IMG/VR virus record: IMGVR_UViG_3300042330_000875
Coordinates: 1-64,000 of that record
Reading direction: 5' to 3' (one strand)
DNA length: 64,000 nt
From: a virus
In this document: positions 7,787 to 46,643 of the stretch, piece by piece
Layout of the letters: each line of letters opens with the position of its first letter
How positions within the stretch are numbered: position 1 is the stretch's first letter
The notes under the pieces: model-generated
What the model saw: the letters and a program-made list of their open reading frames with translations, nothing else
What the model was told of the DNA's origin: nothing
Databases searched by the model: none
Position numbers and translations under genes: made by a program

Positions 7787-8209
7787 CTAATTAATAATAA
7801 GAAAAATATGCATATTTGGTCCGAAAAATTTAGAATATTCTCTTGTAAATTTCGCTTTTATATTAATCTTATTATTTTTGATAATATAATTGGTATTTAT
7901 TTTATAATGGGGATAAATTCTCATTATTTCGTTTTTATTTAAAATTGTTTTTTTAAATTGGTAAAATAATCTAACATAAATTACATATGCTTGATAAAAA
8001 CAAAGATTAAAACTTAAATCATTTTCGTAAACAATTAATTTATTATACTTAAATTTCATTTTTAATATTAATTTATTTTTCTTATAAAAACAATATTCTT
8101 CATTATTATAATGTAAAATTAAACCACGATAATCAATAGTAAATTTTTTCTTATTTAAAAAAGGGTGATTGGGTGGATGAGGTAAACCAAAATGCCGTAA
8201 ATTACTCAT
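7787..8209 (-). CDS. Hypothetical protein, tandem paralog of 7335..7769
   Basis: Same shared block. Confidence 0.7.
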   Translation of the reverse strand: MSNLRHFGLPHPPNHPFLNKKKFTIDYRGLILHYNNEEYCFYKKNKLILKMKFKYNKLIVYENDLSFNLCFYQAYVIYVRLFYQFKKTILNKNEIMRIYPHYKINTNYIIKNNKINIKAKFTREYSKFFGPNMHIFLIIN

Positions 8210-22145: not shown

Positions 22146-22221
22146 CTAACTGATCAAAATTATTCTATTTCTGCAAATGATATGAATGCTTATGAAAAAG
22201 TAGAAAACAATTAATTGTTTT

Positions 22222-23394
22222 CTACTTTGATTTAGGAATTTTAGAATCAGCACTTGAAACACAACTTTTACTTATGCATTTTGTTGGTTGATCAAATATT
22301 TTAAATCCATTTACTAAATCTCCTAATGGTTGATCAGCACAACTATAGCCGCGTTTAACAATTCCATTTGGTTCACGAATAATAATACTTTGATAACCAG
22401 AATTACAATTCCAATTTTCAAAATTATTAAAATTAAAACTGTTCATACGTTCAGCTTGATCAAGATACCATTTTTTGTTTTCTTCATCGGTTAATTCTAC
22501 TTGCATTATTTGTGGAATTTTTTCTTGATTTTCTAAAACATCTTGTAATTTTTTATATTTTGGACGGGTTGGAATTTTATTATTTTTATCTAATGCTTGT
22601 TGTGTAAAGTCTCGTTGTGGCATACCATTATAAAGACGATTTAACATGTCTTGTGAATATCCATCAACAATCTTTGTAGCATTATAATTGCTTTGTGGTT
22701 TTAATGTTGTATTAATCCCCAATTCATGAAAATAAAGTGCATTTTCCCAATCGAATTCAAATAAATCAGGACGCATAACCATATTAATTGTTACTTGTAT
22801 ATCATTTTCTTGACAATATAATAATTTTTCAATAAATTTTTCTTTTTTAGCAAATTCAGAATGAAAACTAGCTGTAATACTTACACGATGTAAATTTTTA
22901 GTTACTTCAACATATTCTTTTAACCATTTTAAATTTTTACTCATATTAGTTGTCATATGCACACTTTGATAATTTGTTTTTTCCAAATGAGTTGTATAAT
23001 GATTTAAAATTTTTAAATAATCTGGATGTGCAGTAGGTTCACCACCAGAAAAACTAAAATGAAATGAATTAAAATTGTTTTCATTAGCTTGATAGATAAT
23101 TTCATCAATTGTTTTTGTAATTACATCTAATGGTCGAAAATCTTTAATGTGTGTACTGGCGTAGCCCCAGCAGTAGGAGCAATGGGCATTTTCATATTTT
23201 TTCCCATTTACTTCAATAATTTTTTTAGATTTTTCATCAGGTTTTTTTAAAAAATTAAAATTGCAATATCTTTGCAAAATCCAACTGACATTGAATAGAT
23301 CACGCTCTAACATAGTGCGTTGACCAAATGATTTTATCTTATCAAAGGGAATTTTAGTAAAGTCATATTGTGACCATTTTAAATTATCGTTCAT
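22222..23394 (-). CDS. Radical SAM protein with extended CX27CX2C motif and C-terminal twitch-like Cys cluster
   Basis: FSGGEPT, MTTN, SFHSEF; C-terminal C...C...CISKSC. Confidence 0.85.
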   Translation of the reverse strand: MNDNLKWSQYDFTKIPFDKIKSFGQRTMLERDLFNVSWILQRYCNFNFLKKPDEKSKKIIEVNGKKYENAHCSYCWGYASTHIKDFRPLDVITKTIDEIIYQANENNFNSFHFSFSGGEPTAHPDYLKILNHYTTHLEKTNYQSVHMTTNMSKNLKWLKEYVEVTKNLHRVSITASFHSEFAKKEKFIEKLLYCQENDIQVTINMVMRPDLFEFDWENALYFHELGINTTLKPQSNYNATKIVDGYSQDMLNRLYNGMPQRDFTQQALDKNNKIPTRPKYKKLQDVLENQEKIPQIMQVELTDEENKKWYLDQAERMNSFNFNNFENWNCNSGYQSIIIREPNGIVKRGYSCADQPLGDLVNGFKIFDQPTKCISKSCVSSADSKIPKSK

Positions 23395-23408
23395 AAATAA
23401 TATTTAGT

Positions 23409-24470
23409 TTAACTTTTAAATAATTTTGTCAATTTAAAAAAGTCTTGTTTTCTCAATTGATCTAATTTATTGTTGTTTTCTAAAAAATTATTCCAATTTC
23501 CTTCTTTGATATTCAACAAATATTTTTTTATTTTATCAAATTGATTTTCAGAATAATAATCAATTAAATATTGTTTTTTATCAAATGAAATATGTTTTAA
23601 GTTTAAATAATCAGGATGTTCTAAAATATTCCAATAAATTTCACGATCACACCAATTATCTAATTCTTTTAAAAATTCGATATTGGTTATTTGAACTGTG
23701 CAGTGAATTTTTATTTCAGCTTTAAGTTGTTTTATAGTTTCATAATTTTTTAAAAATTGATTCCATTTTGCAGGATAACGAATATACTCATAAACATTTT
23801 CAATTCCATCAACCGACAAATGTAATTTTAAATTAGAAAATTTTTCCCATAATTTTAAAACTTTATCAGGTAATACAGTTAAATTTGTATTGTACTTTAA
23901 TTCTATATTAGTTTTGTTATTATCGATCAACCATTGTAATATATCAATATGATGAGGGTTCAATAAAGGTTCTCCACCTGTAAAATAAATTGCTTCAATA
24001 AATTGTAAATTATTTTTTAATTGAACAAAAAATTCTTGGTTTTTATCCCAATTGTAAAGTTTAGTTTGTTCATTCCACATTTTTTGATGATCTTCTTGCC
24101 AAGCAGAACTAGAATAGCCATTACACATTCTACAACGTAAATTACAACTATTACCTAATCTTAAATCTAAATAAACAATTTCTGTTTTTTCATTGTTTTT
24201 TATTTTTTTTAAATGAACAGAAAATTTTTCATTATAAGCTAATCTTGCACTTTTTAAACCAAAACTTTCTTCATTAAAACATCGTTTACAAACTGTTGGT
24301 TTTTTATTTTCCAACATTTCATTTTTAATTGATTTAAGGTAATTTTCTTTGTATTCTTCTATTTGATCAAAGCGATAATTTGAAGATGATTGTGCATTAC
24401 AGCAAACACGTAATTTTCCTGTTGGAGTAGTTGCTAAATGAATCCAAGGTAAAACACATAAATTATTCAT
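23409..24470 (-). CDS. Radical SAM protein with N-terminal twitch-like cluster
   Basis: CNLRCRMC, FTGGEP, SVDG. Confidence 0.9.
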   Translation of the reverse strand: MNNLCVLPWIHLATTPTGKLRVCCNAQSSSNYRFDQIEEYKENYLKSIKNEMLENKKPTVCKRCFNEESFGLKSARLAYNEKFSVHLKKIKNNEKTEIVYLDLRLGNSCNLRCRMCNGYSSSAWQEDHQKMWNEQTKLYNWDKNQEFFVQLKNNLQFIEAIYFTGGEPLLNPHHIDILQWLIDNNKTNIELKYNTNLTVLPDKVLKLWEKFSNLKLHLSVDGIENVYEYIRYPAKWNQFLKNYETIKQLKAEIKIHCTVQITNIEFLKELDNWCDREIYWNILEHPDYLNLKHISFDKKQYLIDYYSENQFDKIKKYLLNIKEGNWNNFLENNNKLDQLRKQDFFKLTKLFKS

Positions 24471-25539
24471 CGATCCAACCTACTATTTCTTTGTCGATAA
24501 CATCTTTATAATTTAAATTTCTAGTTGTATTAAAATAGTTTAAAGCAAATTTTAATTGTTCTTTATCAAATTTATTTTCTTGTTGAATAAAATTAACTAA
24601 TTCATCGTATTGATTGTGATTTTTTAATAATTGTAATTTGTTTAAAATGTATTCTTTTTTATCAGTTATATTGGCTTGGAAATATTCAGGCTTTCTTAAT
24701 ATCTCAAAATTTATTGGGATATTAAAATATTCATTTATTTTACCTAATTCACAAATATTAAAAAGCTGTACTGTACAATTAATCAATTGTTTTATATGTT
24801 GAAATTGTTGTAATTTAATTAAATTTTCTTCTATAATAGAAAATTTCAAAGGATAACGAATATATTTAAAAACATTATCTAAACCATCAATTGAGATTTT
24901 TATTTTGGCTTTGAGTTTATCAGTTAAATCAAAAAATTCTTCATCCCAAACAGATAAATTTGTTACAATATTTAATTGTGGGCTTAAATTATTTTCAACT
25001 AAATGTTGTAATACTTTTTTATTATTAATATCTAATAAAGGTTCGCCACCTCGCAAATTAATTCTTTTTGCATTTTTTAAAAAAGGTTTAACTATATCAA
25101 AATTTAATTCTGATTTTAAATTTTTGCCTTTATAATGAATTGGTACATTTTTATTTTTAACCTCTGATGCTATTGCCGAAGAACAACGTGGCGTACACAT
25201 AATACATTTACTGTTACAAATATTAGAAAAATTTAAATCTAAAATTTCTGCTTGATCAAAAAATTCAGTTAATTTGTTTGGTAAAATAAATTGTTCATTT
25301 ACAGTTAATCTTAAAGATTTTTTTCCTAATTCTTCATCTTTTTCACAACGCAAACAATTTTTTGGAAATTTATTATTAATAAAATCATTTCTAATTTGTT
25401 TCATAATTTCAGAATTATGGCGATTTTCAATGGGAATATTTTCAAAAGGCATATTTATTACAAAACCACACGGTACAAACGTGCCATCTGAATGAAAACC
25501 ATAACTTTTCCAAGGCATTACACATTTAACCATTATCAA
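24463..25539 (-). CDS. Radical SAM protein with N-terminal twitch-like cluster
   Basis: CNSKCIMC, RGGEP, SIDG. Confidence 0.9.
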   Translation of the reverse strand: MIMVKCVMPWKSYGFHSDGTFVPCGFVINMPFENIPIENRHNSEIMKQIRNDFINNKFPKNCLRCEKDEELGKKSLRLTVNEQFILPNKLTEFFDQAEILDLNFSNICNSKCIMCTPRCSSAIASEVKNKNVPIHYKGKNLKSELNFDIVKPFLKNAKRINLRGGEPLLDINNKKVLQHLVENNLSPQLNIVTNLSVWDEEFFDLTDKLKAKIKISIDGLDNVFKYIRYPLKFSIIEENLIKLQQFQHIKQLINCTVQLFNICELGKINEYFNIPINFEILRKPEYFQANITDKKEYILNKLQLLKNHNQYDELVNFIQQENKFDKEQLKFALNYFNTTRNLNYKDVIDKEIVGWIDE

Positions 25540-26311
25540 TCCAATCTAAAACTTCATTCCAATTTAAAATTATTTTATTTACATTATCAAAAGAGTAAGG
25601 ATTTTTTCTTACAAAACCTTCATGATTAAAAGAACTTTTTTCAAAAATTGTTTCACCAATTTCATGTGGTAATTTATTTACAATTGAATTATATTCAATA
25701 TTTTTATAAATTGAAAATTTATCTTTTGTTTGAATAAAAATTTCATATCGTTTTTTTATTTTATCAACTGTATTTTTATCTAAATTAAATGGTTCGGGTA
25801 ATTGATACTCTAATCCATTTAACAAATGAGTTGGATTATTTGAAAACCAAGAAATTGCATAACTTGCTATAATTTCTTTTAAATCACGATGTAAAACAAT
25901 TGCTTGATAATTTTCTTTCAAATACTCAAAATCATCATCGGGAATTAAATGATGACTTAAAATTTTTAAAAAATAATGTTGATGTTTGTATTTTTCTAAA
26001 ATTGTTTTAACTTTATAATCGTTTTTTAATAAAATATGATTTTTATTTATTAAATCTTCTTGGCAAGTAATATAAACTTCATTGGGAATTTTTCTTGTTC
26101 CTGGCGAATGTCTTACTTGAACTAAATTTTCATTTGTATCAACTAACCAGGGACATTCATTTTTATTTTGATTGAATAACTCAGTTGGAGTTACACCAAA
26201 ACTACAACTTGTTTTTGTTGCTAAATTATTATAAAATAAATAAAGTTGTAAACTACGATGTAATAAAAAACTTCCACTTCTACCACAAGAATAAACAAAA
26301 TACTTTTTCAT
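25526..26311 (-). CDS. Sulfotransferase-like P-loop protein
   Basis: N-terminal GRSGS (5'-PSB-like), HRD...IAS (3'-PB-like). Confidence 0.55.
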   Translation of the reverse strand: MKKYFVYSCGRSGSFLLHRSLQLYLFYNNLATKTSCSFGVTPTELFNQNKNECPWLVDTNENLVQVRHSPGTRKIPNEVYITCQEDLINKNHILLKNDYKVKTILEKYKHQHYFLKILSHHLIPDDDFEYLKENYQAIVLHRDLKEIIASYAISWFSNNPTHLLNGLEYQLPEPFNLDKNTVDKIKKRYEIFIQTKDKFSIYKNIEYNSIVNKLPHEIGETIFEKSSFNHEGFVRKNPYSFDNVNKIILNWNEVLDWIDNG

Positions 26312-26318
26312 TATCTAT

Positions 26319-27158
26319 TTACTTTTTCAAATAAGTCAATAAAGCTCTAGTACCAATTAGTTTATTTTCAAAAATTGCACTATGAATACAATTTGTTTTT
26401 GTTAAATTAAAATCAAAACAAAGTTTTTCATATTCTTCTCGATAATAGTTCCATAAAAAATTATCACCTAATGTTTCTATATAATGTAATGCCATAGCAG
26501 AATTAGTTTTATCAATCATATCATAAGCGTTCATTATACCAATACTTGTATTAGTTAAATCATTTTTAGATAAAATAACTCCAATTCTATTATTCATCAT
26601 ATCAAAAGATTTACTTAAACTAAAACCAATTTGTTTTATTTGACAATGACTTAAATCTAAAGTTAATTGTTCGCTACAACCCAACCAACAAGCATCAATA
26701 TAAATATCAATATTTCTTTCCGAACATATTTGTGAAATATCATTCCAATTATTGGGTAAAGATGATGTGCATGTATTTGGTATGCTAATTATTAAAGGTA
26801 TATTATTTTTTAGTTCTAATAATCCAACAGAATTATTGCCTAATTTTTGATGATATGAATATTCACCATGTAAAACTTGTATTTTATTTGATTGATAACA
26901 ATTATTAATAAAACCAGTACAGCCATTGGTTAAGTAATTATAATTAAAATTTTCTAATCCATATATATTATTATTTTTTGTAACATATTCGATAATTTTA
27001 CTTTTTATTATTGATTGAAATTTTTTATCAGTTATTATTGATCGATATTTTTTTATGTCAAAAGAAAAATACGTATCATAAAAAATCTTATTCCAAATTG
27101 GTTTTGGGGTTGGTAATAAAAATTCTTTATTATAATATGGTGCAGTTTTCATTAGCAT
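26319..27158 (-). CDS. PLP-dependent transferase-like protein
   Basis: IYIDACW, FSLSKSF, RIG. Confidence 0.7.
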   Translation of the reverse strand: MLMKTAPYYNKEFLLPTPKPIWNKIFYDTYFSFDIKKYRSIITDKKFQSIIKSKIIEYVTKNNNIYGLENFNYNYLTNGCTGFINNCYQSNKIQVLHGEYSYHQKLGNNSVGLLELKNNIPLIISIPNTCTSSLPNNWNDISQICSERNIDIYIDACWLGCSEQLTLDLSHCQIKQIGFSLSKSFDMMNNRIGVILSKNDLTNTSIGIMNAYDMIDKTNSAMALHYIETLGDNFLWNYYREEYEKLCFDFNLTKTNCIHSAIFENKLIGTRALLTYLKK

Positions 27159-28176
27159 TCCTTAAAATATTATCAATTGCAATTGGACTTATATCTTTAA
27201 ATTTTTTTCCTGTTTTAGTAAACCATAAATTTTCATAAACTATTAATTGTTTTTTATCAATATCAGAGATATTGATGTTATCAATTAATAAATTGTCGAT
27301 TATTATTTTTGTTTTTTCTGGTAAATCAATTTCATTTAAAATATCTTTTGTTAATAAATTACAATTTAAAAAATTAGGATTTCTTAATATATGAAAGTAC
27401 CAAGGTATATTTAAATTTAAAAAATAATCTTCAATTGATTTTAAATGCTCTAAATTTAACCATTGAACAGTTGTTTGAGTTCTTACGTCTGATATTTTTT
27501 TAAATTCTTGTAAGTTTTTTTCTAAGGTTTTCCAATCAGTTCCTAATCGAATATATTCTGCAATATGTCCTATTCCATCCACACTAACATTTATTTTTAT
27601 ATTTGAAAATTTTGATAATATTTGCCATATTTTTTTATTAAAAACACTTCCATTGGTTAAAAATTCTATTTCACAGGATAAATTATCGATTGATATTAAT
27701 TTTTCTAAAATATCAATAACTTTATTTTCTAAAAATGGTTCACCTCCTGCAAAACTAATAAATTTAGCATCGTGTAAATTATTCAAATAATCATAATTTT
27801 TAATAACTTTATTATGTTTTTGTTTTAATTCCTTTTCCCATTTATTACTTGCGCTTGGCCCACACATAATGCATTGAAAATTACAATGATTAGATAATTT
27901 AAAATCAAACGTTTGATAAATTTTATGATCTTTTTTAGCATCTTCAAATGAATATAAATTTCTGTTTAATTCTAAAATTCTTCTTGATTTTTTTCCTATT
28001 TTTTCATCATTATAACATCTTTTACATTCTGCGCTTTGCAAGTCATTTAACATATTATTTTTTATTTTTTTTAAAACATCATCATTGACGATTGCATCAG
28101 AATGGGCGCATAATCTTTGAGTATTATCAGTTTGGATATAAAAATGATTCCAAGGAACAGGACAAAAAGTTTTCAT
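27130..28176 (-). CDS. Radical SAM protein with N-terminal twitch-like cluster
   Basis: CNFQCIMC, FAGGEP, SVDG. Confidence 0.9.
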   Translation of the reverse strand: MKTFCPVPWNHFYIQTDNTQRLCAHSDAIVNDDVLKKIKNNMLNDLQSAECKRCYNDEKIGKKSRRILELNRNLYSFEDAKKDHKIYQTFDFKLSNHCNFQCIMCGPSASNKWEKELKQKHNKVIKNYDYLNNLHDAKFISFAGGEPFLENKVIDILEKLISIDNLSCEIEFLTNGSVFNKKIWQILSKFSNIKINVSVDGIGHIAEYIRLGTDWKTLEKNLQEFKKISDVRTQTTVQWLNLEHLKSIEDYFLNLNIPWYFHILRNPNFLNCNLLTKDILNEIDLPEKTKIIIDNLLIDNINISDIDKKQLIVYENLWFTKTGKKFKDISPIAIDNILRNANENCTIL

Positions 28177-28574
28177 TTTTTCATTATTTCATTAAAGTAA
28201 TTTTCGGGCCAATTGTTATAATAAACTGTTTTTTTTAATATATTTCTTTTAATTTCCATATCTTTTCTGTTTTGTATAAAAATACAATTGGTAAAATTTT
28301 TAACAAAAAGTCCAGATGTTGGTGTTGATTTTAAAACGATCCAATCATCATTAAATTTTAAAGTTAAAAATGTTAATAAAATATTATCAATTTTATTATC
28401 ACACCAAACGACATAAATTTTATCATTATCTGTAAAATTAAAATTATCAGTTGGTAATAAAAAATCAATTTTATTATTTATTCTAGCTGATTGGGCATAA
28501 GGACAAATATTTTTCTTTTCGATATTTGCTATTGACCATTCAATAAATTGTTTTTTAAATTCATCAAATTTCAT
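28173..28574 (-). CDS. Hypothetical protein with CPYA motif
   Basis: ICPYA; overlaps both neighbours. Confidence 0.65.
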   Translation of the reverse strand: MKFDEFKKQFIEWSIANIEKKNICPYAQSARINNKIDFLLPTDNFNFTDNDKIYVVWCDNKIDNILLTFLTLKFNDDWIVLKSTPTSGLFVKNFTNCIFIQNRKDMEIKRNILKKTVYYNNWPENYFNEIMKK

Positions 28575-29584
28575 AAATAATTTTCCATTTCACCAACTCT
28601 AGCAATATCTTGAGTACAACAATGAATGCCGCCATCCCAAAAATATTGATGTTTAAAATTCCATATTATAGGATTTACTTTAAATTTTTCTAATTGATCA
28701 AATACTTTTTTATTAAAATGCGTAAAAATAATATTATTTTCATCAATACTTAAAGCATTAACATCAAAAACAGTTTCATCCACATAACCAACCCAATCTT
28801 TTAACCATTTTTGAATAAAATCACCATAAAAATGTTGTTTTCTTAATGATAAAAATTCATTTGGTAATGGATTAAATTCTTCAATTAAAATAACATCCCA
28901 ATTTTTTAATTGTTCAGGAATCCAATCTTTATTCCAAGTAATCAATAATCCTGGTTTAACTAAACAAATTTTTCCATCAATATGTCCGCCAATAGGAAAA
29001 TCAACAAATTCACAATCGTAAAATTTGGGTAATATGTTTTTAATCCATTCTTTTCCTTTTAAATTTCCTTTGCCATTTTTTTCATCTTCTTCTATTGATT
29101 GGGATATTAAAATATGTTTACCTAGTTTAATCATATTAGCAGCATCAAAATATAATTCTACATTTTTATTTTTTTCTATTTTAGGTTGTGGCATAGATAA
29201 ATTAACAAAATCATCGATCCAATTTTTTTTATAACTTAAATGTTCAAATTGACGATTATCATGTTTAGTAAACATATCAATTGCTAAATTACCATAAACA
29301 AATAAAACATCTCTTGGCATCAAAGGTGGACTCATAAACTTATAATCATTCCAAGGTAAAGAAATATTTTCTTCAAAATTATCTACTAAAATATCAGGGC
29401 GAATAACTTCAATATCAAATGTTTTTAGTAATTTTTCTAATTCATTTAATTGTTCATTTGTTTCATGTAATATAATTTGTATGCTATTTTTAAATTCTTG
29501 ATTTTTATGATAATCAAAAATCTTTTGGTCATATGTTTTACCTACAATAATTTTTTTTAATTTTTGAAACTCAGTAAAAGTCAT
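28571..29584 (-). CDS. Amidinotransferase (pentein fold)
   Basis: MPRD, FDAAN, GHID, DGGIHCCT. Confidence 0.85.
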   Translation of the reverse strand: MTFTEFQKLKKIIVGKTYDQKIFDYHKNQEFKNSIQIILHETNEQLNELEKLLKTFDIEVIRPDILVDNFEENISLPWNDYKFMSPPLMPRDVLFVYGNLAIDMFTKHDNRQFEHLSYKKNWIDDFVNLSMPQPKIEKNKNVELYFDAANMIKLGKHILISQSIEEDEKNGKGNLKGKEWIKNILPKFYDCEFVDFPIGGHIDGKICLVKPGLLITWNKDWIPEQLKNWDVILIEEFNPLPNEFLSLRKQHFYGDFIQKWLKDWVGYVDETVFDVNALSIDENNIIFTHFNKKVFDQLEKFKVNPIIWNFKHQYFWDGGIHCCTQDIARVGEMENYL

Positions 29585-30351
29585 TCGATTTCCTCATAAA
29601 GAGTAAACGCCAATCCACATTTTGTTTTAGTATTATTTTTTCTATGATCAGCACTACAATGAATTTGTGTTGGATCAATAACCATAATTGAACCAATTTT
29701 CCAAGGCAATATTTTTTCTATATGTAAATCAGTTAAATTTTCTTTTGGAAGAAATGAAAGATATTCATCGTATATTTTTTGATCTTGCCAATTATTTTCT
29801 TTATTATATTTTCTTGATCCTTTTTCTAAATCATAAAATTCTATATCATCATGAGAATAAACATCTTTCCAATAACCTTTTACGCTATCTTTTTTAAATC
29901 CTTGACAAAAAATAGTACCATAATTTAAAACTCGTTCACGAAAGCAAATTAATCCAGAATGTAAGTCTTCATTTTTACTTGGGGTTACAAATAAAGGTAT
30001 GACAAAATGTTTTAAAGGTATTAATTTATGATCAAATATTGATGATTCTTCTTCGCTCATACTGTCTGCGTGTAAAGCATAAGGATGTAAAGTTAAATAA
30101 AAATTTCCACCATAATGTTTTTTTGAGAAATCTTTATTTATTAATCTTTTAAACCTATCAGAAAATTTATCAGCAATAATAGTATGTTTATTTTTAATTT
30201 TAAACAACATTGTGCCACTTTCTTTTATTGTTGTTGATGAATGCTCTCGCCACATAAAATCAATCATCCAAGAAATTTCTTCTTTAGAGAAAAAATCATC
30301 AACTTGAAAACATTCACTTAAATTTGTTTTCCATTTATCAAAATTAGTCAT
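29581..30351 (-). CDS. 2OG-Fe(II) dioxygenase-like protein
   Basis: LHAD ... QIHCS facial triad. Confidence 0.6.
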   Translation of the reverse strand: MTNFDKWKTNLSECFQVDDFFSKEEISWMIDFMWREHSSTTIKESGTMLFKIKNKHTIIADKFSDRFKRLINKDFSKKHYGGNFYLTLHPYALHADSMSEEESSIFDHKLIPLKHFVIPLFVTPSKNEDLHSGLICFRERVLNYGTIFCQGFKKDSVKGYWKDVYSHDDIEFYDLEKGSRKYNKENNWQDQKIYDEYLSFLPKENLTDLHIEKILPWKIGSIMVIDPTQIHCSADHRKNNTKTKCGLAFTLYEEIE

Positions 30352-30384
30352 GTAAATATTTAAATGAAAACCGATTTAATGATT

Positions 30385-31182
30385 TTAGTATAAACTAGAT
30401 AAACAAATTCTTGAATATTCGTTTCCACGATTAAATTGTTTAAACTTACCAAAGCTGTATCCTAAAATAACACTATCACTTGGTATTATTTTTAATTTAT
30501 CACAAATAGAAATTTGTTTAATTCTATATTTTTCATATAACGTATCTATATTATTATGTATAATATAATTATAAGCTATATTCATTCCTAGAAACGGTAA
30601 ATGATTATTTTGATTTAATAATTCAATAGGATCATCATCATATTTTTTAGTAAATCTAATACCACATCTATATTGAAAAACCGGAATTATTTTATGCATA
30701 GAATGCGCTATAACATCAATACAATTGTTATTTGGTATTTTTATCTTTTTTGTTGTGCCATAATAAGCCAAATCTAAAAAAACTTTAATATCGTTTACAT
30801 CACAATAATTTAATATTTCATCAATATTTTGAAAGCATCCGTTATCACAAAACGGAAAACTAATAGCTAAAATTCCTTCTTTTATTTCTTTAAAATTTTT
30901 TATAAAATTAATATTCATATTTAAAAATTTTGCCACATTTTGATAATATGAATATTCACCAACAAATAAATTCAAGGTTTTTGTTTTATTTTTCATTAAC
31001 CAAACATCAATTGATTGTGTTATTCCTGTTGTTATATTAATTTGATCAAAATCATTTATACCTAAAAATTTTTGATATTTTAATTTATAATCATTTGATA
31101 ATATAAATGAATTAGTTATTTTATTAAAAATTGGTTTTATTTGTTTTAAACTCATTTTCTTTTTAAATCCAAAGTAATACAA
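30385..31182 (-). CDS. PLP-dependent transferase-like protein
   Basis: FLDLAYY, HSMHK, RCG; paralog of 26319 (GEYSY). Confidence 0.7.
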   Translation of the reverse strand: MYYFGFKKKMSLKQIKPIFNKITNSFILSNDYKLKYQKFLGINDFDQINITTGITQSIDVWLMKNKTKTLNLFVGEYSYYQNVAKFLNMNINFIKNFKEIKEGILAISFPFCDNGCFQNIDEILNYCDVNDIKVFLDLAYYGTTKKIKIPNNNCIDVIAHSMHKIIPVFQYRCGIRFTKKYDDDPIELLNQNNHLPFLGMNIAYNYIIHNNIDTLYEKYRIKQISICDKLKIIPSDSVILGYSFGKFKQFNRGNEYSRICLSSLY

Positions 31183-32165
31183 TGTGGACCACCACCCAAT
31201 GTCCTACAATGTGTTAGTTTAATTGGTATGCAATCAAAATTGTGGTTTTTTAATAATTTCATTAAAGGTTTTTGTGTTTCTTCTACTATAATAGTTCGTT
31301 CATCAATACTTAATATATTCATAGCCATCCAAATACTACTATTACCAAAGTCTTGATGTATTTGAGTAGGGATCGGTTCATCGAAATAAATACAATTCCA
31401 ATTTTTGAAAAATTCCGGCAGGTTATGTTTATTAACTCTTGAAGAATTTAATAAAATTGTATTATCATTTAATGGAACAAAAGTTGTATCAACATGCATG
31501 TAAGAATAAAAATTTTCTAAAATATGTAGTTTATAATTTTTTGGTATATTTCTTTTTAACCATTCTGCGCCTTTTAAATTTCCAGTATTGCTTACTAAAT
31601 AAAATATATTATTATCTACTTTAAAAATATTTGCGGCATCAAATAAAATTTCTTCATTTGTTAATGTTGGTATTTTTAAATCATTTAATTGATAATTTTT
31701 ATCTAATAATTTTTGCTTTGGGGCGCTGATCCAGTTAAACCCTTCTTGAAATTTTTCTTCAAAAATTTCAAATAAAGAGAAATTCTCAAAATATCTTGAT
31801 CGTAACACATTTGGTGATTCAATTATAGTATTTTCTATTACTAATGCTGTGTCTCTTGGGCAATAAGAAAAATATTGTTCAGTTTTCCAAAAGCTATTAC
31901 TAATTTTATTTTTATTAATTGGTTTACTTCTATATGTTTTTATATTATGCGACCTTAATAATTCTTCAAATTTTTCTAAATCATCGAATGTTTCATCAAT
32001 AATATTTTTAGGATATTGACCTAATTTCAATTTTTTAAATTCATTATTTGATAAATTAGCATATTCGATACTATGCATAGATTTATCTTTTGTATTAGGT
32101 TTAATAGCATTTATAATATTACCTATTATAACTTCTTGTAATGTTGAATATTCGTTTTTAATCAT
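31152..32165 (-). CDS. Amidinotransferase (glycine/inosamine-phosphate amidinotransferase-like)
   Basis: NEYSTLQEVIIG, YCPRD, FDAAN, HVD, GGGPHCIT. Confidence 0.9.
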   Translation of the reverse strand: MIKNEYSTLQEVIIGNIINAIKPNTKDKSMHSIEYANLSNNEFKKLKLGQYPKNIIDETFDDLEKFEELLRSHNIKTYRSKPINKNKISNSFWKTEQYFSYCPRDTALVIENTIIESPNVLRSRYFENFSLFEIFEEKFQEGFNWISAPKQKLLDKNYQLNDLKIPTLTNEEILFDAANIFKVDNNIFYLVSNTGNLKGAEWLKRNIPKNYKLHILENFYSYMHVDTTFVPLNDNTILLNSSRVNKHNLPEFFKNWNCIYFDEPIPTQIHQDFGNSSIWMAMNILSIDERTIIVEETQKPLMKLLKNHNFDCIPIKLTHCRTLGGGPHCITLDLKRK

Positions 32166-32755
32166 TTATAGATGCTCTTTCTTGGTATTACATTTTCAGT
32201 ATCAGACGTATAATATATAAATCTCAATGCTTCTGCATTATTAGAATTTTTACTAACTGAATGCCAAGAATTTTCAGTATTTTCAAATATAACAAAATTA
32301 TTTTTAATCCAATCGTATGTAACTTTATTATTATCATTTTCTAAAATTAATTGACAATCGCTATTATTTAAAAAATAAATTCCAGTTAAAAATCTTTTTA
32401 AACCTAGATAGCTATTAATTGTATAATCTATATGTGCTTCAACCATATGATTTTCAGGTATTCGCATAAAACCCCCGCCCCAAAAATTCATATCAACAAT
32501 TATTCCTTTTTTATTAAAATAATTTTCTAATTTTTTTATAAATTTATGATTATAAAAATAATTTACGGGTATATTAGTAATATTTTCATCTAAATCATAA
32601 ATCCAAGTATACTCGTGTAATAATGTGTTTTTATTTTGATAAATTTTGCATTCTTTTTCTGTTAATTTATTAAAATAAATTTCTAATGTATTTGTAATTT
32701 CATTAGAAAAAACATTTGTTAATAATAAATGATTATAAGGTTTATTTTTAAACAT
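32162..32755 (-). CDS. 2OG-Fe(II) oxygenase
   Basis: GGG, AHID, SWHSV. Confidence 0.75.
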   Translation of the reverse strand: MFKNKPYNHLLLTNVFSNEITNTLEIYFNKLTEKECKIYQNKNTLLHEYTWIYDLDENITNIPVNYFYNHKFIKKLENYFNKKGIIVDMNFWGGGFMRIPENHMVEAHIDYTINSYLGLKRFLTGIYFLNNSDCQLILENDNNKVTYDWIKNNFVIFENTENSWHSVSKNSNNAEALRFIYYTSDTENVIPRKSIYK

Positions 32756-32770
32756 ATAAATATTTATATG
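32753..32770. promoter_or_regulatory. Bidirectional T4-type late promoter palindrome
   Basis: CATATAAATATTTATATG: perfect palindrome, TATAAATA on both strands, ends are the two start codons. Confidence 0.75.
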
Positions 32771-33409
32771 AAAATATTATTATTATCTTCTGAAAGAAGT
32801 GGAAGTACCGCATTTCAAGAATTTTTAGCTAATAAAAATAATATTAAAAATTATTTAGAACCTTTTGAAAATACTCAAAATAAAAGATTTACAAAAAGTA
32901 ATGAATATTCAATAATTAATGCTATAAATATATTATGTAACGATAATAATTATATTATAAAAATACAAATGAATCAAATGAATGATAATAAAATAAAATT
33001 TATAATTAATGAGTTACAAATTGATAATATAATAGTATTATTGAGAAAAAATTTTATTGAACAATGTTTAAGTAATCAATTATCAAATTATACGGATAAA
33101 TGGCACAATTCAGATTTAAAACCAAAAGATAACATAATACATCATGAAATGATAAAAAATAAAACATTTAAGGCAAATGAAAAATATTTTATAAATCAAG
33201 AAACTTACAATAAAAGATTATTAAATTGGGGGTTAAAAAATCCTATTTATTTTCATGAAGATAATATTGTTAATTTTAATTGTACACGTTATAAAAAATT
33301 AAATAACAATATTATCACTAATTTTACTAATCAAAATGAAATATTTCATTTTAATACTAATTATAATGTTAGTTTGAGAAAATATTTAAATGAAAATTTA
33401 TATTATTAA
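32768..33409 (+). CDS. Sulfotransferase-like P-loop protein
   Basis: ERSGST, YLEPF, LLRKNFIEQCLS. Confidence 0.6.
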   Translation: MKILLLSSERSGSTAFQEFLANKNNIKNYLEPFENTQNKRFTKSNEYSIINAINILCNDNNYIIKIQMNQMNDNKIKFIINELQIDNIIVLLRKNFIEQCLSNQLSNYTDKWHNSDLKPKDNIIHHEMIKNKTFKANEKYFINQETYNKRLLNWGLKNPIYFHEDNIVNFNCTRYKKLNNNIITNFTNQNEIFHFNTNYNVSLRKYLNENLYY

Positions 33410-34430
33410 AGAACCAACAGAAAATGATTTTTTTTATATAGAAGATTTAATTTCTTATTTTAATTTAGAAATAGTCGAAGATATTAAACAAGCAGATATT
33501 TTGTTTTTTCAACCTTATTATGATTATGGTAATTATAATAATGCACATACGATTTAATCGTATGTGCATTATTATAAACCTATTGTTTATTTTGATATTT
33601 GTGATTATAGCCCATTATATGAAAATAAAGAACTATTTAATTTTTTAAAAGAAAACAATATAAAATTAGTAACCTTTGATAAAGAAAATATTAAAATTAT
33701 AAATGATGAATTTATAATGAATTATTGGGAATTAAAAAGTTATCTAACAACATTAACAATAAAAAATGAAATTAATAAAAGATTTTTATGTTTAAATCGC
33801 AGGATTCATGAATTTAGAAATACATTAATTGGTGAATTATATAATCAAAATTTATTAGATAATTTTTTATTAGGTTTTGGGCGCGAACGATCAGGTAAAA
33901 AACAACATTTTGATTATAATAATTTAAAATATATAACAAATAACAATTATAAAAATTTTGAAAAACAATTACCAATTATATTACAAAACAAAGTTAACAA
34001 TTTAACTGTTGAAGATATATTTTTATTAAAACAAGATTTGTTCTCTAAAACCCAAATGAGTATAGTAACAGAAACAAACTTTAATTTTCCCATTTTAACA
34101 GAAAAAACATATTTAGAATTAAGTAATAATCGACCTTTTATAATAGCTGGCGGCGCTTATTCATTAAAAAAATTACACAATAAAGGTTTCAAAACTTTTT
34201 CTTTATTATGGGATGAAAATTATGATTTAATAGAAGATCATACAAAAAGGTTAAATGCTATCGTAGAAGTAATTAGATTTCTAAATAATTTAGATAGTAA
34301 AGAGTTTAATAATATTATTGAGAAATCAAAAATAATATCAGAATATAATAAACAAATATGTAATGAAATTTTACAAAAAACTAAAAATAACTTTAATCAA
34401 TATATTAGGAATATAAATGAAAATATTTGA
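33390..34430 (+). pseudogene. Glycosyltransferase-like gene with in-frame TAA at 33555..33557
   Basis: ORF from 33390 is in frame with the 33564 ORF; SIVTET, TEKT, RPFII, GFKTF, WDENYD motifs. Confidence 0.6.
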
Positions 34431-35397
34431 TCCAAACTATAAAAATAATATTGAAATAAAAAATAATTGGAATTGGTATGGATTACTTGGTTTAAAAAGA
34501 TTAATTCCTGAAATAGAAATAACTGAAAATATCGAACAAGCAGATTTTGTTTGGATTGAAAACTCACCTAATAAAAGAGTTAGTAAAAGAAAAGATTTTC
34601 CTGTTTATTCAAATAAAACACATATTTTAAATGCAGGTTTAGAATATGAAAATACTAAATATGATTTACCAAAAAATTATATTGTGTTTGATTGTAATGA
34701 AAAAAACAATCAAATAGATTTTAACTTATGTAAATTAACAAGTTGGTTAGATGGTCAATTAGTCACAGGAAATAAAGAAATAAAATTTAATTTTGGATTT
34801 CGTCGCCCTGATATTCATAGAAACTCATTGGAAAAATTAATAAATAATTTTTCTGTTTATCATTATCGTTGTGAAATTCCCGAAAAAATAAACGATGATA
34901 TTTTTTTAAATTCAAAATATGCCGATTTATTTCAAGAAAATATATCGGATAATATCTTTACAGATATTGCTGGTGTTCACAATCAAGTTCCTGAATCTTT
35001 TGTTAACATGTATAAAGAAACAAATATATCAATTGTAATGGAAACAATGTTTTGGCATGATTTATGCTTTGATAGTGAAAAAGTTCATCGAGAGTTAGCT
35101 TGTGGAATGATACCAATTATTTTTGGACCTATTGGTATTGTTGAAAAATTAAAAAATCAAGGATTTATTTTTCCTGAACATTTATGGGATCATAGTTATG
35201 ATAAGATTATTGATCCATTAAAACGATTTGATTTTCTCGTTGACCAATTATTTGAAATAGAAAAAACATCTAATAGAGAATTTGATTTATGGAAAAAAGA
35301 ATTTGAAATAATTGGTTTTAAAAATCATCAAACAGCTAAACGGAATTTAAAAAATGATATTGATAATCTTAGAAAAATTTTTCATAATTTTCTGTAA
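34417..35397 (+). CDS. Glycosyltransferase-like protein, paralog of preceding gene
   Basis: SIVMET, SEKV, PIIFG, WDHSYD. Confidence 0.55.
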   Translation: MKIFDPNYKNNIEIKNNWNWYGLLGLKRLIPEIEITENIEQADFVWIENSPNKRVSKRKDFPVYSNKTHILNAGLEYENTKYDLPKNYIVFDCNEKNNQIDFNLCKLTSWLDGQLVTGNKEIKFNFGFRRPDIHRNSLEKLINNFSVYHYRCEIPEKINDDIFLNSKYADLFQENISDNIFTDIAGVHNQVPESFVNMYKETNISIVMETMFWHDLCFDSEKVHRELACGMIPIIFGPIGIVEKLKNQGFIFPEHLWDHSYDKIIDPLKRFDFLVDQLFEIEKTSNREFDLWKKEFEIIGFKNHQTAKRNLKNDIDNLRKIFHNFL

Positions 35398-36283
35398 TAT
35401 CGTTTTTTAACAAAAATAAAACTTCATCTGTTTCATTAAAAAAGCTAAATGATAAGTAGAATGTATATATTATTTTACCATCTTCACAATCATCAATTAT
35501 ATTTGTATGTTCTATGTGATAGTTTACGTTCATGTGCCCAATTAACGAATTAATATCAATTAAAAATTTATTAATTAATTTATTATTTAATATTGGGAGT
35601 TTGTTGTTGAGTTGATAAAAACCGTGATTGGAATTAATAACTATTGAGCATAAACCTGATCCATCTTTATCTAATTTTCCCATAGCCGAAACGGGATAAA
35701 TTTTTTCATCACCGATAAAGAATTTTAATCTTGTTTGAGAAACCACAATATTTCATCCAAATTGTTTTTAAATTCGATTGTTATTCTTATTTTATTAAAC
35801 CATTCATTATCATAATTTATTGTACCATATTTTTCAATGTTAATATTGATATTTTCCGGCAAAGTATCAATATCATCAACAATTATTTGATTTATTTCTT
35901 TATCTGTATGATAAATTGGTAACATATAAGCTAATTGGTTTAATTTTTTGTCTGAAGTTAAGATTAATTCTGGATAACATTCAATTATGTAATATTTTGT
36001 CATTATAAATTCTTTCATTTTGTAATAGCCATAATATTTCATCTACTTCATTATTAAATTTAAAAGAAATACTAATAAATTTCAAAGAAATACAGTCATA
36101 TTCTATTTTTAATAGACTATATATTATATTTTTAGGATAATTAATTTTAAAAATATGGTTAAGTTTTTTTATATGATCTTGATCACTTGTATTATCATTT
36201 AACTCAATGAAATACCCAAAAGCATATTCTTTGTTTTTTGTAAAAGTTACAGGGTTTATAGAATATATAAAATATTCATTCAT
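35369..36283 (-). CDS. Three small related proteins (35369..35746, 35725..~36003, 35981..36283) with C-terminal tag
   Basis: Share FxNxxDE[VI]L[FW][LF]L. Confidence 0.7.
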
Positions 36284-36903
36284 CAGTTATTCCATAATTT
36301 CACTAAATTTTCAACTTGGCTTTCTAATTGATCGATTGATCCATTATTATAAATGATATGGTCAAACGCGCAGTTCAACCAATTCCATTCTGAAATATGT
36401 ATTTTAAGCTCGTTTAAGCGTTCTACAGCAATTTTGTCGCCTCTTGCGGCTTTCACCCCATCTAATATCCAAGAGGGTTCTGGATCGCGCCTAATCCAGA
36501 TTGTAGGGTACTTATTTTTCTTTAACCAATCAAATTCATTTGGGAATCTACAGTCGGTTACAACAACATCCTTGCCATCAAATTTTTTAGCTAAACTTAA
36601 CAACCAAATGTCAGGATGAAAATGTTCACGCATAACATCAGTTCCGATAAATTGCAAAGCAAAACGTGGAGTAAAATTATTAATACCCAATCGGTTACTC
36701 CACCAAACATCAATAGTTTCTCTCCAAACTCTACTTTCAGTTGTTTTGCCTTCTAATAATTCTCTATCCCAAGAAAAAATATTAGCACAAGCATCTTTTA
36801 ACGTGCCAGCAAAACTGGCTTTTTCAAAATGATAATTTTCAATTAAGATACTTCCTAGCGTATCTTTTCCTGCGCCAGCAAATCCACCTATTCCTACAAT
36901 CAT
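36283..36903 (-). CDS. Deoxynucleoside monophosphate kinase (T4 gp1-like)
   Basis: GFAGAGKDT, TPRFALQFIGTD, DCRFPNE. Confidence 0.9.
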   Translation of the reverse strand: MIVGIGGFAGAGKDTLGSILIENYHFEKASFAGTLKDACANIFSWDRELLEGKTTESRVWRETIDVWWSNRLGINNFTPRFALQFIGTDVMREHFHPDIWLLSLAKKFDGKDVVVTDCRFPNEFDWLKKNKYPTIWIRRDPEPSWILDGVKAARGDKIAVERLNELKIHISEWNWLNCAFDHIIYNNGSIDQLESQVENLVKLWNN

Positions 36904-38552: not shown

Positions 38553-38855
38553 TTATTCTCGTAATTTAAAAATAGTCAAATTTGCACTATTAAGTTCTTG
38601 TTCAAAATGATCAAAAACATCTTCATAATGAACAAATAGATGAACTTCTTTTTCAGCAGCAAATTTCATAATTACAGGAAGATTATCTTCTTTTCCAATA
38701 GTTAATTGATAAGCAGTAATTTTTTCTTGAAAATCTTTTGGATATTGAGGAAAAGCTAACGTATCCAAGGCGCGCATAACAGCATCTTCAATTTTAAAAA
38801 TAATAACATAACCTTGCCCACCAACCCATTTATCTGTAAAAGCATATTTATTCAT
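38553..38855 (-). CDS. Hypothetical protein
   Basis: Probable start MNKYAF overlapping the tilS stop. Confidence 0.6.
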   Translation of the reverse strand: MNKYAFTDKWVGGQGYVIIFKIEDAVMRALDTLAFPQYPKDFQEKITAYQLTIGKEDNLPVIMKFAAEKEVHLFVHYEDVFDHFEQELNSANLTIFKLRE

Positions 38856-39711
38856 AACTAATCTCCAATTTTGTTTTGTTTTGTTTAAAAGAATATTTTC
38901 CAAACTTAAATGAAATTTTTGTATTTTCATTTTTTAAGTTTAGTTGTTTTAAGTATGTTTCAACTGAACGATATTTGACATTTTGAATATTATTTCTATT
39001 AAGAAATCCCATCCAAGCATTTTTTTGTCGAACGAAGGATAATTGAAACATTGCAGTTAAGTCAATAACATTATTTTGAAAAAATTTATTCCAATCTTCT
39101 AACGCCAATTCATCAATTAATTGTTCTTGTTCACTTAAAACATTAACTGTTTGTGAAACAATTTGTTTCACATCTTTATAATGTGTTTCAATGTTTGGAA
39201 TTAAAGTATTTCTAATAAAAACACGATTTCTATTATTGTCAAAATTAGTTGGATCATTGATCCAATCAAGAAAATTTTCTCGGCAATAATTTAAAATATC
39301 TTTTTTAAAAAGATTTAGCAATGGTCGATAAATTGTAAAATTTTCAAATTCAACAATTTCTTTAATTCCAGTTAATCCACGCAAGCCTGATCCACGAAAC
39401 AATCTTAGAAAAAATGTTTCGATATTATCATCTTTATGATGCCCAACTAAAATTTTATCACCATGTTTTGCTAAAGCAGAATATCGTTGATTTCTTGCTG
39501 TGTTTTCAAAATTACCCTTTTTACAAAAAACATTTTCTACAATTAAATGAAAATTGTGTTTTTTAGCAAAATTTTTACAAAATTCTTCTTCAAGTTTATC
39601 TTGATTGGATTGGTTATGATTTACATAAACAATTTTAGGATTTAAATGTTGTGTTTTATGCCAAAGACAAACCGAATCTGCCCCGCCCGAAAATCCTAAA
39701 ACCCAATTCAT
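38848..39711 (-). CDS. tilS: tRNA(Ile)-lysidine synthetase
   Basis: SGGADS, ARNQRY, GHHKDDNIETF, RPLL, DPTN. Confidence 0.92.
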   Translation of the reverse strand: MNWVLGFSGGADSVCLWHKTQHLNPKIVYVNHNQSNQDKLEEEFCKNFAKKHNFHLIVENVFCKKGNFENTARNQRYSALAKHGDKILVGHHKDDNIETFFLRLFRGSGLRGLTGIKEIVEFENFTIYRPLLNLFKKDILNYCRENFLDWINDPTNFDNNRNRVFIRNTLIPNIETHYKDVKQIVSQTVNVLSEQEQLIDELALEDWNKFFQNNVIDLTAMFQLSFVRQKNAWMGFLNRNNIQNVKYRSVETYLKQLNLKNENTKISFKFGKYSFKQNKTKLEISYE

Positions 39712-46634: not shown

Positions 46635-46643
46635 GGTAATTAA

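Follow-up and report, generated by a model that had tools for sequence, protein, structure and literature searches.

A compact cluster of paired amidinotransferase, radical SAM and transferase-like genes in a giant phage from lake water

What does a phage make with two predicted amidinotransferases, four radical S-adenosylmethionine (SAM) proteins and further paired enzymes, and to what is the product attached? The question is raised by a gene cluster of about 13 kb (positions 22222-35397) in the IMG/VR virus record IMGVR_UViG_3300042330_000875. The analyzed window of 64,000 nucleotides, with a G+C content of about 25%, is the first 64 kb of this 146-kb record, for which CheckV estimated a completeness of approximately 45%. 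The source is an uncultured giant phage from lake water, a T4-like myovirus, which also encodes gp32-like and UvsX-like proteins. An earlier note, based on the letters of the sequence, had read the cluster as a route to a guanidinylated and possibly sulfated sugar or cyclitol that follows the logic of streptidine synthesis. Our analysis gives slightly better than even chances to a cytoplasmic sugar-tailoring pathway that would add guanidino groups, and perhaps sulfate, and attach the sugar to an acceptor. Such modules have been known in phages since 2010, and the one described here is another, compact and duplicated instance.

Gene content and layout of the cluster

The open reading frames (ORFs) described previously were confirmed at their coordinates. 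The features of the cluster, together with a distant fifth radical SAM gene, are as follows (2OG, 2-oxoglutarate; PLP, pyridoxal phosphate; AT, amidinotransferase; OG, oxygenase; ST, sulfotransferase-like; GT, glycosyltransferase-like):

195-1541, minus: fifth radical SAM protein, 20 kb from the cluster; N-terminal 4-Cys auxiliary domain, CX3CX2C motif at residue 140
22197-22228: hairpin with a 14-bp stem; lies at the stop of 22222-23394, where the minus-strand operon has its 3' end
22222-23394, minus: rSAM_A, radical SAM protein with a C-terminal 4-Cys domain; PF04055 43.6 bits, above the cut-off
23409-24470, minus: N-terminal-twitch radical SAM protein 1; PF04055 above the cut-off, NF033640 320 bits, CNLRCRMC at residue 109
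24463-25539, minus: N-terminal-twitch radical SAM protein 2; PF04055 above the cut-off, NF033640 209 bits, N-terminal SPASM match
25526-26311, minus: ST1, putative sulfotransferase-fold protein; RSGS loop at residue 11, R-x7-S at 142
26319-27158, minus: PLP1, putative PLP enzyme; IDAC Asp155, SLSK Lys183, likely start 27152
27130-28176, minus: N-terminal-twitch radical SAM protein 3; PF04055 above the cut-off, NF033640 223 bits
28173-28574, minus: 133-aa protein, coupled on both sides; sole match phrog_10325 (unknown function), E 5e-6
28571-29584, minus: AT2, predicted divergent amidinotransferase; PDB HsvA (5wpi) E 5.5e-16, SxtG 1e-11, AGAT 2e-10; phrog_25854
29581-30351, minus: OG2, candidate Fe(II)/2OG oxygenase; HAD 94-96 and His231, conserved in 5 homologues
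30385-31182, minus: PLP2, putative PLP enzyme; Asp137, SMHK Lys164, Arg172, likely start 31155, ATGA overlap with AT1
31152-32165, minus: AT1, predicted StrB1-like L-arginine amidinotransferase; PDB 1bwd (StrB1) E 8.7e-72, residues 2-336
32162-32755, minus: OG1, predicted 2OG-Fe(II) oxygenase, first gene of the minus-strand operon; HID 108-110, His165
32753-32770: palindrome CATATAAATATTTATATG, 18 bp, containing both divergent start codons
32768-33409, plus: ST2, sulfotransferase-like P-loop protein; RSGS, R-x8-S, ORF open from 32729
33390-33557, plus: N-terminal piece of GT1, 55 codons, in the same frame as GT1 and ending in an in-frame TAA
33533-33577: palindrome with a 21-bp stem, TAA at the tip and GTG restart (33564) in the 3' arm
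33564-34430, plus: GT1, GT-B-like, C-terminal 288 aa; paralogue of GT2 (E 2e-9), family profile
34417-35397, plus: GT2, GT-B-like; fold search, GT10-like ET...EK motif

The cut-off of PF04055 is 29.5 bits and the curated cut-off of NCBIfam NF033640 (N_Twi_rSAM) is 170 bits.

Twelve minus-strand genes extend from 32755 down to 22222 with small gaps or overlaps, in the order OG1, AT1, PLP2, OG2, AT2, the 133-aa protein, N-terminal-twitch radical SAM 3, PLP1, ST1, N-terminal-twitch radical SAM 2 and 1, and rSAM_A, while ST2, GT1 and GT2 form a divergent plus-strand set (32768-35397). The set of oxygenase, amidinotransferase and PLP enzyme is therein encoded twice in succession, as OG1-AT1-PLP2 and then OG2-AT2...PLP1. 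The claim of mostly coupled translation agreed with the tight same-strand packing of the 12 genes and with five 4-bp overlaps read from the coordinates (28173-28176, 28571-28574, 29581-29584, 32162-32165, and 31152-31155); the last assumes the PLP2 start at 31155 and is the only one for which the ATGA letters themselves were read. The hairpin at 22197-22228, detected by a perfect-palindrome scan of the 146-kb record, is likely a bidirectional terminator that closes the minus-strand operon.

AT1 and AT2 are predicted from their sequences to be pentein-fold amidinotransferases of the StrB1/AGAT/SxtG/HsvA group. Enzymes of the StrB1/AGAT type transfer the amidino group of L-arginine to a primary amine via a covalent Cys-amidino intermediate. 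The matches of AT1 to SxtG, HsvA and AGAT were weaker than that to StrB1. The PRD, FDAAN, HxD and GGxHC motifs were all present in both proteins, and the two amidinotransferases with D/H/C motifs described before proved to carry the full Asp/Asp/His/Asp/Cys set each: Asp105, Asp176, His224, Asp226 and Cys329 in AT1, and D92, D147, H201, D203 and C322 in AT2 (PRD92, FDAAN, HID201-203, GGIHC322). The catalytic columns were invariant across 28 homologues, and AT1 had 4,242 homologues at E<=1e-20. Scanning IMG/VR with the single AT1 protein returned nothing, and an alignment-based profile was needed; the profile scan yielded 488 relatives of AT1, of which the best 80 loci were searched with our own family profiles (loci are given below as L with a number).

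PLP1 and PLP2 are paralogous (E 3e-10), and their sequences suggest that they are like class I aminotransferases. Neither protein had a Pfam match, PF00155 included. We aligned the pair with homologues encoded at three loci each of viruses and of Bdellovibrio; the Ser/Pro, Asp, SxSK and Arg motifs were invariant in this family, and D137, S161, K164 and R172 (PLP2 numbering), invariant in seven sequences, aligned with the class I aminotransferase 3if2 and with ACC synthase. The profile of the seven sequences matched 3if2 at E 0.006 across the PLP motifs. PLP2 had a weak NCBIfam class V match (E 0.0027). For PLP1, the Atlas comparison gave 0.98 to viral aminotransferase-like clusters (223/256 features), only 14-20% of whose members carry PF00155. 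A word-index homologue search for PLP1 returned only the window's own proteins, and an AlphaFold2 (AF2) model of PLP1 built from two sequences was not used (pLDDT 38.5). The pair was also compared by hhalign with the short DegT proteins of related modules (E 0.55) and with gp082 of phage CP220, and neither comparison was significant; no match to PF01041 was found anywhere in the 146-kb record. Thus, the two PLP enzymes of the note stand as paralogues with PLP motifs, but of a class-I-like kind and not of the DegT/StsC type of streptidine synthesis. In addition, L084 (1440-2816) and L052 (1459-2835) encode a class-I-like PLP domain preceded by a fused N-terminal stretch of approximately 200 residues. 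This stretch has no Pfam match, and a ParB/sulfiredoxin-like DGSHR motif was seen in it by eye.

The four radical SAM genes of the cluster and the fifth at 195, also described before, were all recovered, with PF04055 matches for four, NF033640 matches for three and orthology for 195-1541. The CX3CX2C motif was present in 23409-24470, 24463-25539 and 27130-28176, and each of these three NF033640 proteins has four N-terminal Cys at approximately residues 5, 23, 61 and 64. We know of no NF033640 member with a known reaction. In rSAM_A the cluster motif is divided by a 24-aa insertion (C44-x27-C72-x2-C75), whereas the motif is intact in four orthologues (E 1e-90 to 1e-98). A second insertion of 28 residues lies downstream of the split motif. 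The protein of 195-1541 scored 24.5 bits with Pfam Radical_SAM, under the cut-off, and had a SPASM match as well; its orthologues are located inside the modules of the phage loci L005, L006 and L008 (E 1e-120 to 1e-145). A sixth radical SAM gene is situated at 114170-115144 of the 146-kb record, far from the cluster.

OG1 can be assigned with confidence as a predicted 2OG-Fe(II) oxygenase. Its own PF13640 score is 26.4 bits against a cut-off of 27, its homologues (E 1e-9 to 1e-13) pass PF13640 at 55 bits, and an OG1-type gene holds the same position beside the amidinotransferase in L005, L006 and L008. OG2 is a possible Fe(II)/2OG oxygenase. It had no Pfam, PDB or profile match, a word-index search found, beyond the window's own proteins, one relative with 86% identity, and its homologue adjoins the second amidinotransferase in L006 and L011-L016. 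The hhalign comparison of OG2 with the OG1 family was not significant. The two 2OG oxygenases of the note thus differ in standing: OG1 is upheld through homologues that pass PF13640, whereas OG2 is named from its HxD...H motif.

ST1 looks like a sulfotransferase: the Atlas value to the Sulfotransfer_3/NodH clusters was 0.96, with TM 0.55-0.69. No Pfam match was obtained for ST1 or ST2, and a PDB sequence search with ST2 gave nothing meaningful. Homologues of ST2 lie beside the amidinotransferase in 11/80 viral loci. Hence, of the two sulfotransferase-like genes proposed, ST1 is backed by Atlas and motifs and ST2 by motifs; a kinase role for either product is also conceivable.

The family of GT1 and GT2 counts 13,462 representatives at E<=0.001, and no Pfam model covers it. 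In the AF2 model of GT2, the C-terminal half had pLDDT >90 and the N-terminal half was poor. The top 50 VIA rows without exception, and the Foldseek rows (E 4e-3 and weaker) with few exceptions, were GT-B matches, that is, GT-B enzymes or fusions containing one (Z 6-8.7), and the ET...EK motif of the family aligned with the GT10 fucosyltransferase motif. The modeled fold therefore suggests that GT1 and GT2 are GT-B-like transferases. The pair of glycosyltransferase-like genes is accordingly retained as paralogues with GT-B fold matches, with the reservation that GT1 is interrupted by a stop codon.

The reading frame of GT1 extends upstream to an ATG at 33390. The 55 residues encoded by this upstream piece can be aligned to the N-termini of GT2 and of the family without any surplus length. 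The TAA at 33555-33557 stands at the tip of a perfect palindrome with a 21-bp stem (dG -29.3 kcal/mol, z -7.4), which is the longest in the 146-kb record and occurs once. Contigs from other runs terminate within this palindrome. Assemblers stop at inverted repeats, so the contig ends indicate that the population carries the hairpin. The interruption could mean that a nonsense mutation broke the gene, or that the gene is split and translation restarts by coupling; the site could also act as an internal terminator or in recoding. The TAA at the hairpin tip in GT1 and the split CX3CX2C motif in rSAM_A are new here.

Occurrence of the gene set in phages and bacteria

At least four other metagenome runs from lake water yielded contig pieces that are identical to the cluster and span most of it; therefore, the cluster DNA is real and recurs in lakes. 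Apparent joints in the contigs from other runs had sides of 21-33 nt with 85% likeness and were judged to be AT-rich noise. A megablast search of the 13-kb cluster against 50,697 phage records gave no match.

The earlier note had made its reading depend on the genes occurring together elsewhere, and they did so in many other phage genomes. We counted partner genes within 10 kb of the amidinotransferase over the 49 of 80 IMG/VR loci with full flanks, many of which are near-duplicates, so that the counts are not independent events. The control consisted of 80 bacterial loci with the closest cellular homologues (35-44% identity). A gene of the GT-like family was located near the amidinotransferase in 41/49 IMG/VR loci versus 4/80 bacterial loci, a radical SAM gene in 33/49 versus 5/80 (N-twitch type), a short DegT gene, counted with a seed-only profile, in 26/49 versus 20/80, and an OG1-type oxygenase gene in 19/49 versus 1/80. 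The bacterial loci with a GT-like or radical SAM gene are mostly those of Bdellovibrio. The amidinotransferase stood alone in 5/49 IMG/VR loci, and as many as five GT-like genes were counted at single loci of the viral relatives. One of the bacterial loci with DegT is the streptomycin locus of S. griseus (L161). Among the 80 bacterial loci, the full set was found only in Bdellovibrio/Bdellovibrionota and on one contig of a Chloroflexota metagenome-assembled genome. This contrast shows that the association is specific to phages and Bdellovibrio and is not general to amidinotransferase neighbourhoods.

The design closest to that of the window was observed in L011-L016, with two amidinotransferases, an OG2 homologue, OG1 and rSAM_A. 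L005, L006 and L008, metagenomic contigs reached through homologues of AT1, have a triad of 2OG oxygenase, short DegT and amidinotransferase amid many radical SAM genes. In L008 and L091, genes for a uridine diphosphate (UDP)-glucose dehydrogenase and a short-chain dehydrogenase/reductase (SDR) of the dehydratase/epimerase type precede the triad, and in L090 the amidinotransferase lies amid four SDR dehydratases/epimerases, two DegT and two GT7 genes. The locus of Bdellovibrio sp. HCB2-146 (L122, 1849803-1870792 of a 2.2-Mb contig) combines four radical SAM genes and an amidinotransferase with UDP-glucose dehydrogenase, SDR, short DegT, GT-like and class-I-like PLP genes. A polysaccharide lyase gene and an outer-membrane beta-barrel gene are also encoded there.

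Proposed pathway, substrate and acceptor

In the pathway that we favour, a 2OG oxygenase, or else a twitch radical SAM enzyme in the manner of BtrN, would first oxidize a hydroxyl-bearing carbon of a sugar to the ketone. BtrN, of butirosin synthesis, is a twitch radical SAM enzyme with one auxiliary 4Fe-4S cluster, which oxidizes a secondary alcohol to a ketone before transamination; the auxiliary Cys domain of the window enzymes differs in being N-terminal (NF033640). The ketone would be transaminated by the class-I-like PLP proteins to an amine, to which the amidinotransferases would transfer the amidino group of L-arginine, giving a guanidine. With the duplicate set of oxygenase, amidinotransferase and PLP enzyme, up to two guanidino groups might be installed. 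The remaining radical SAM enzymes could carry out further redox, epimerization or C-H chemistry, the sulfotransferase-fold proteins may add sulfate from 3'-phosphoadenosine 5'-phosphosulfate or else phosphate, and the GT-B-like proteins would pass the sugar to an acceptor. The assignment of the first two steps follows from the gene content: as no dehydrogenase, DegT or nucleotidyltransferase is found here, we infer that 2OG or radical SAM enzymes supply the keto group and that the PLP pair supplies the amine.

The neighbours of the amidinotransferase in related loci bear on the type of substrate. A dehydrogenase, an SDR and a DegT protein together resemble the route to UDP-4-amino-4-deoxy-arabinose. 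The presence of UDP-glucose dehydrogenase, SDR and DegT genes in the relatives therefore favours a nucleotide sugar and makes a cyclitol the less likely of the two; searches of the cluster proteins turned up neither an inositol dehydrogenase or inositol-phosphate synthase nor a kinase or phosphatase. The proposed guanidinylated, possibly sulfated product is thus compatible with the enzyme classes as a nucleotide-sugar derivative, whereas its cyclitol variant lost ground. The streptidine branch is similar to the cluster in two respects: AT1 aligns end to end with StrB1, its nearest relative of solved structure, with all catalytic residues, and a sequence of oxidation, transamination and amidination carried out twice fits the gene order. 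It is different in that the window lacks a DegT/StsC-type aminotransferase, an inositol dehydrogenase, a kinase and a phosphatase (none was detected among the cluster proteins), and bacterial amidinotransferase loci rarely carry the phage partner genes. The streptidine route itself has no radical SAM, 2OG or GT-B-like genes. The streptidine logic put forward in the note is therefore kept for the amidinotransferase and the order of steps, but not for the aminotransferase type or the inositol enzymes.

Chemistry on a peptide or protein side chain, with no sugar involved, would also employ several of these enzymes, for example in the conversion of lysine or ornithine to a guanidino residue. Peptide maturation is the typical role of SPASM/twitch radical SAM enzymes, and numerous weak NCBIfam matches were to maturases of this kind; in addition, PF13640 takes in prolyl hydroxylases. 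We nevertheless regard this reading as very improbable, given that the operon contains no small precursor-like gene, that the closest solved amidinotransferases act on small molecules, and that DegT, UDP-glucose dehydrogenase and SDR sugar enzymes lie beside the module in relatives.

The same solved structures could be taken to indicate a free small molecule, either a guanidino metabolite resembling an aminoglycoside or saxitoxin or a set of amidinated polyamines used to package DNA. StrB1, SxtG and HsvA are the best matches in the PDB. HsvA acts on polyamines, and the saxitoxin genes likewise bring together an amidinotransferase and a PLP domain with oxygenases and sulfotransferases. Homologous genes of phage S-SCSM2R were named "antibiotic synthesis genes" by their authors (PMC12801897). 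However, no exporter, resistance, polyketide synthase or carrier-protein gene is present, and the up to five GT-like genes per relative locus suit glycan building better, which leaves a free metabolite as the least probable of the readings considered.

Several observations weigh against the sugar-tailoring pathway. A nucleotidyltransferase, a UDP-glucose dehydrogenase and a DegT protein were not found in the 146 kb of this approximately 45% complete record, and the sole SDR (epimerase/dehydratase) is distant, at 104892-105500. The substrate of every enzyme is inferred from sequence, and no product has been reported in the literature for any homologous module. Neither a fold nor a family match backs OG2, ST2 or the 133-aa protein, the Z values of GT2 (6-8.7) are in the range labelled "common arrangement" by the fold-search tool, though all 50 rows were GT-B, and GT1 contains an in-frame stop.

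As regards the acceptor, the proteins of the cluster all look soluble, and no priming transferase, flippase, polymerase, membrane protein, lipid-carrier or export gene was found among them. The soluble proteins and the lack of a lipid-carrier, flippase or export gene suggest that the acceptor of the sugar is most likely something assembled in the cytoplasm, and our leading guess is a virion protein such as a tail fibre. A virion-type acceptor is also in line with the location of the cluster between neck and tail-fibre genes and with the enzymes found in S-SCSM2R virions: purified virions of this phage contained an amidinotransferase and a 2OG hydroxylase (PMC12801897). The genes surrounding the cluster (8206-9579 and 10782-11873 on one side, 43827-48008 on the other) are among the following:

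2512-3696: TnpB-like gene (OrfB_IS605 and a Cas12f-like TNB domain)
8206-9579: gp15 tail-sheath stabilizer (neck gene)
10782-11873: virion structural protein
16464-17567: gp63-like RNA ligase/tail-fibre attachment protein
36283-36903: deoxynucleoside monophosphate (dNMP) kinase, 0.9 kb from the cluster
38848-39711: TilS-like PP-loop ATPase
41233-43344: double AAA+ ATPase, 703 aa
43283-43747: gamma-glutamyl cyclotransferase-like protein
43827-48008: tail-fibre proteins
59336-61000: glutamine-dependent NAD synthetase

The PP-loop gene was considered as a member of the module and ruled out, being TilS-like.

Remodelling of the host envelope, in which the nucleotide-sugar pool or a surface glycan is altered so as to exclude other phages or to aid release, is fairly unlikely in our view. 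It agrees with the published reading of the glycosyltransferases in the host recognition cluster of pelagimyophages (PMC7029224). In Bdellovibrio chromosomes, moreover, this gene set has an outer-membrane beta-barrel gene and a polysaccharide lyase as neighbours, and UDP-glucose dehydrogenase, SDR and DegT together resemble the lipid A aminoarabinose route. On the other hand, the lack of a priming transferase, flippase, polymerase and membrane protein noted above does not fit such a role, and a lytic giant phage would have little time to benefit.

The dNMP kinase gene close to the cluster raises the further possibility of DNA hypermodification, that is, a guanidino- or sulfo-sugar or a side chain on a base of the phage DNA that blocks host nucleases. 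The T4 alpha- and beta-glucosyltransferases were among the GT-B fold matches (Z 8.0 and 7.8), known pathways of thymidine hypermodification employ radical SAM and PLP enzymes, and the module of L005, L008 and CP220 has ThyX, QueD or QueC genes in its vicinity. We consider this reading improbable: no thymidylate-synthase-type hydroxymethylase was found in the 146 kb of the incomplete record, the neighbouring nucleotide genes differ from locus to locus, and in the DNA of CP220, which bears the module, 7-amido-7-deazaguanine is reported to replace every G, without mention of an adduct of the sugar or guanidino type (PMC10516641).

The note had further proposed that the genes are headed by late-type starts and that late timing would favour the virion. 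TATAAATA is indeed present on both strands at the divergent junction, but only 5 nt ahead of each ATG. No Shine-Dalgarno sequence was found at the palindrome 32753-32770, although AAGGAG is the top upstream 7-mer of the genome. The late motif of T4 is positioned at -13 to -6; this spacing, if valid here, would place the start of transcription at the A of each ATG, and the divergent transcripts are thus possibly leaderless. In the window TATAAATA is under-represented (10 observed versus 23 expected), and it occurs about 25 nt upstream of only 3 other genes across 146 kb. A T4-type late promoter was therefore rejected as the operon signal, and a sigma-70 scan gave no excess over shuffled sequence. 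Because the motif is rare as an upstream signal in this genome, timing cannot be read from it; the late-type starts are confirmed as letters at the junction, whereas the argument from late timing to the virion was not borne out by this ambiguous evidence.

The most specific form of the proposal, a doubly guanidinylated and possibly sulfated sugar on a tail-fibre or capsid protein, with GT1 produced by recoding or by a coupled restart at the hairpin-tip stop, is doubtful, and we hold it to be decidedly unlikely as a whole.

Relation to known modules and significance

The window contains several radical SAM genes, a pentein amidinotransferase and sugar-transferase-like genes in one block of a T4-like phage, which is the definition of a CP220-type module. 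The Campylobacter phages CP220 and CPt10 are T4-like and have five radical SAM genes, a pentein amidinotransferase and sugar-transferase-like genes in one block; its describers called it an "interchangeable module" and knew of no function for it (Timms et al. 2010, PMC2853527). CP220 gp086 is 30% identical to AT1 over 100% of AT1. Unlike the window, CP220 has one amidinotransferase, its transferases are GT-A-like rather than GT-B-like, and the profiles found no class-I-like PLP, OG1-type oxygenase or ST2 homologue there.

The island ORF301-310 of Synechococcus phage S-SCSM2R likewise encodes a 2OG oxygenase, a radical SAM protein, a PLP protein of the short DegT/AHBA-synthase-like kind and several glycosyltransferases, and was interpreted by the authors as serving antibiotic synthesis (PMC12801897). 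The "inosamine amidinotransferase" of the island is 34% identical to AT1, and the phage genome encodes a second amidinotransferase. The island differs from the cluster in its DegT-type PLP protein, GT2/GT25 glycosyltransferases and single radical SAM gene. The host recognition cluster of pelagimyophages and cyanomyophages is also a variable island between neck and tail-fibre genes with glycosyltransferases and radical SAM cassettes; however, no amidinotransferases were described in it, and its freshwater group has no radical SAM genes (Zaragoza-Solas et al. 2020, PMC7029224).

No function has been assigned to the module in any paper found by our literature searches, and no characterized member of the N-terminal-twitch radical SAM family or of the GT-B-like family (>13,000 representatives) is known to us or was found in searches. 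Against this background, the instance in the window stands out because it is duplicated, because its PLP enzymes are class-I-like and because it has two genes of the sulfotransferase fold. A relative of AT1 is encoded in 488 IMG/VR stretches, and three kinds of cultured phages (of Campylobacter and Synechococcus) carry the gene set. The lake-water instance adds a compact duplicated version, together with a contrast between phages and bacteria that shows the association to be specific. Solving one instance would provide the chemistry for all carriers and could reveal a new decoration of virions, hosts or DNA. If a doubly guanidinylated, possibly sulfated sugar does decorate a virion protein, the surface chemistry would be of a class new to phages: a glycan with permanent positive charge, serving in adsorption to host envelopes, which are anionic. 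This chemistry would be common to hundreds of uncultured aquatic T4-like phages and to Bdellovibrio.

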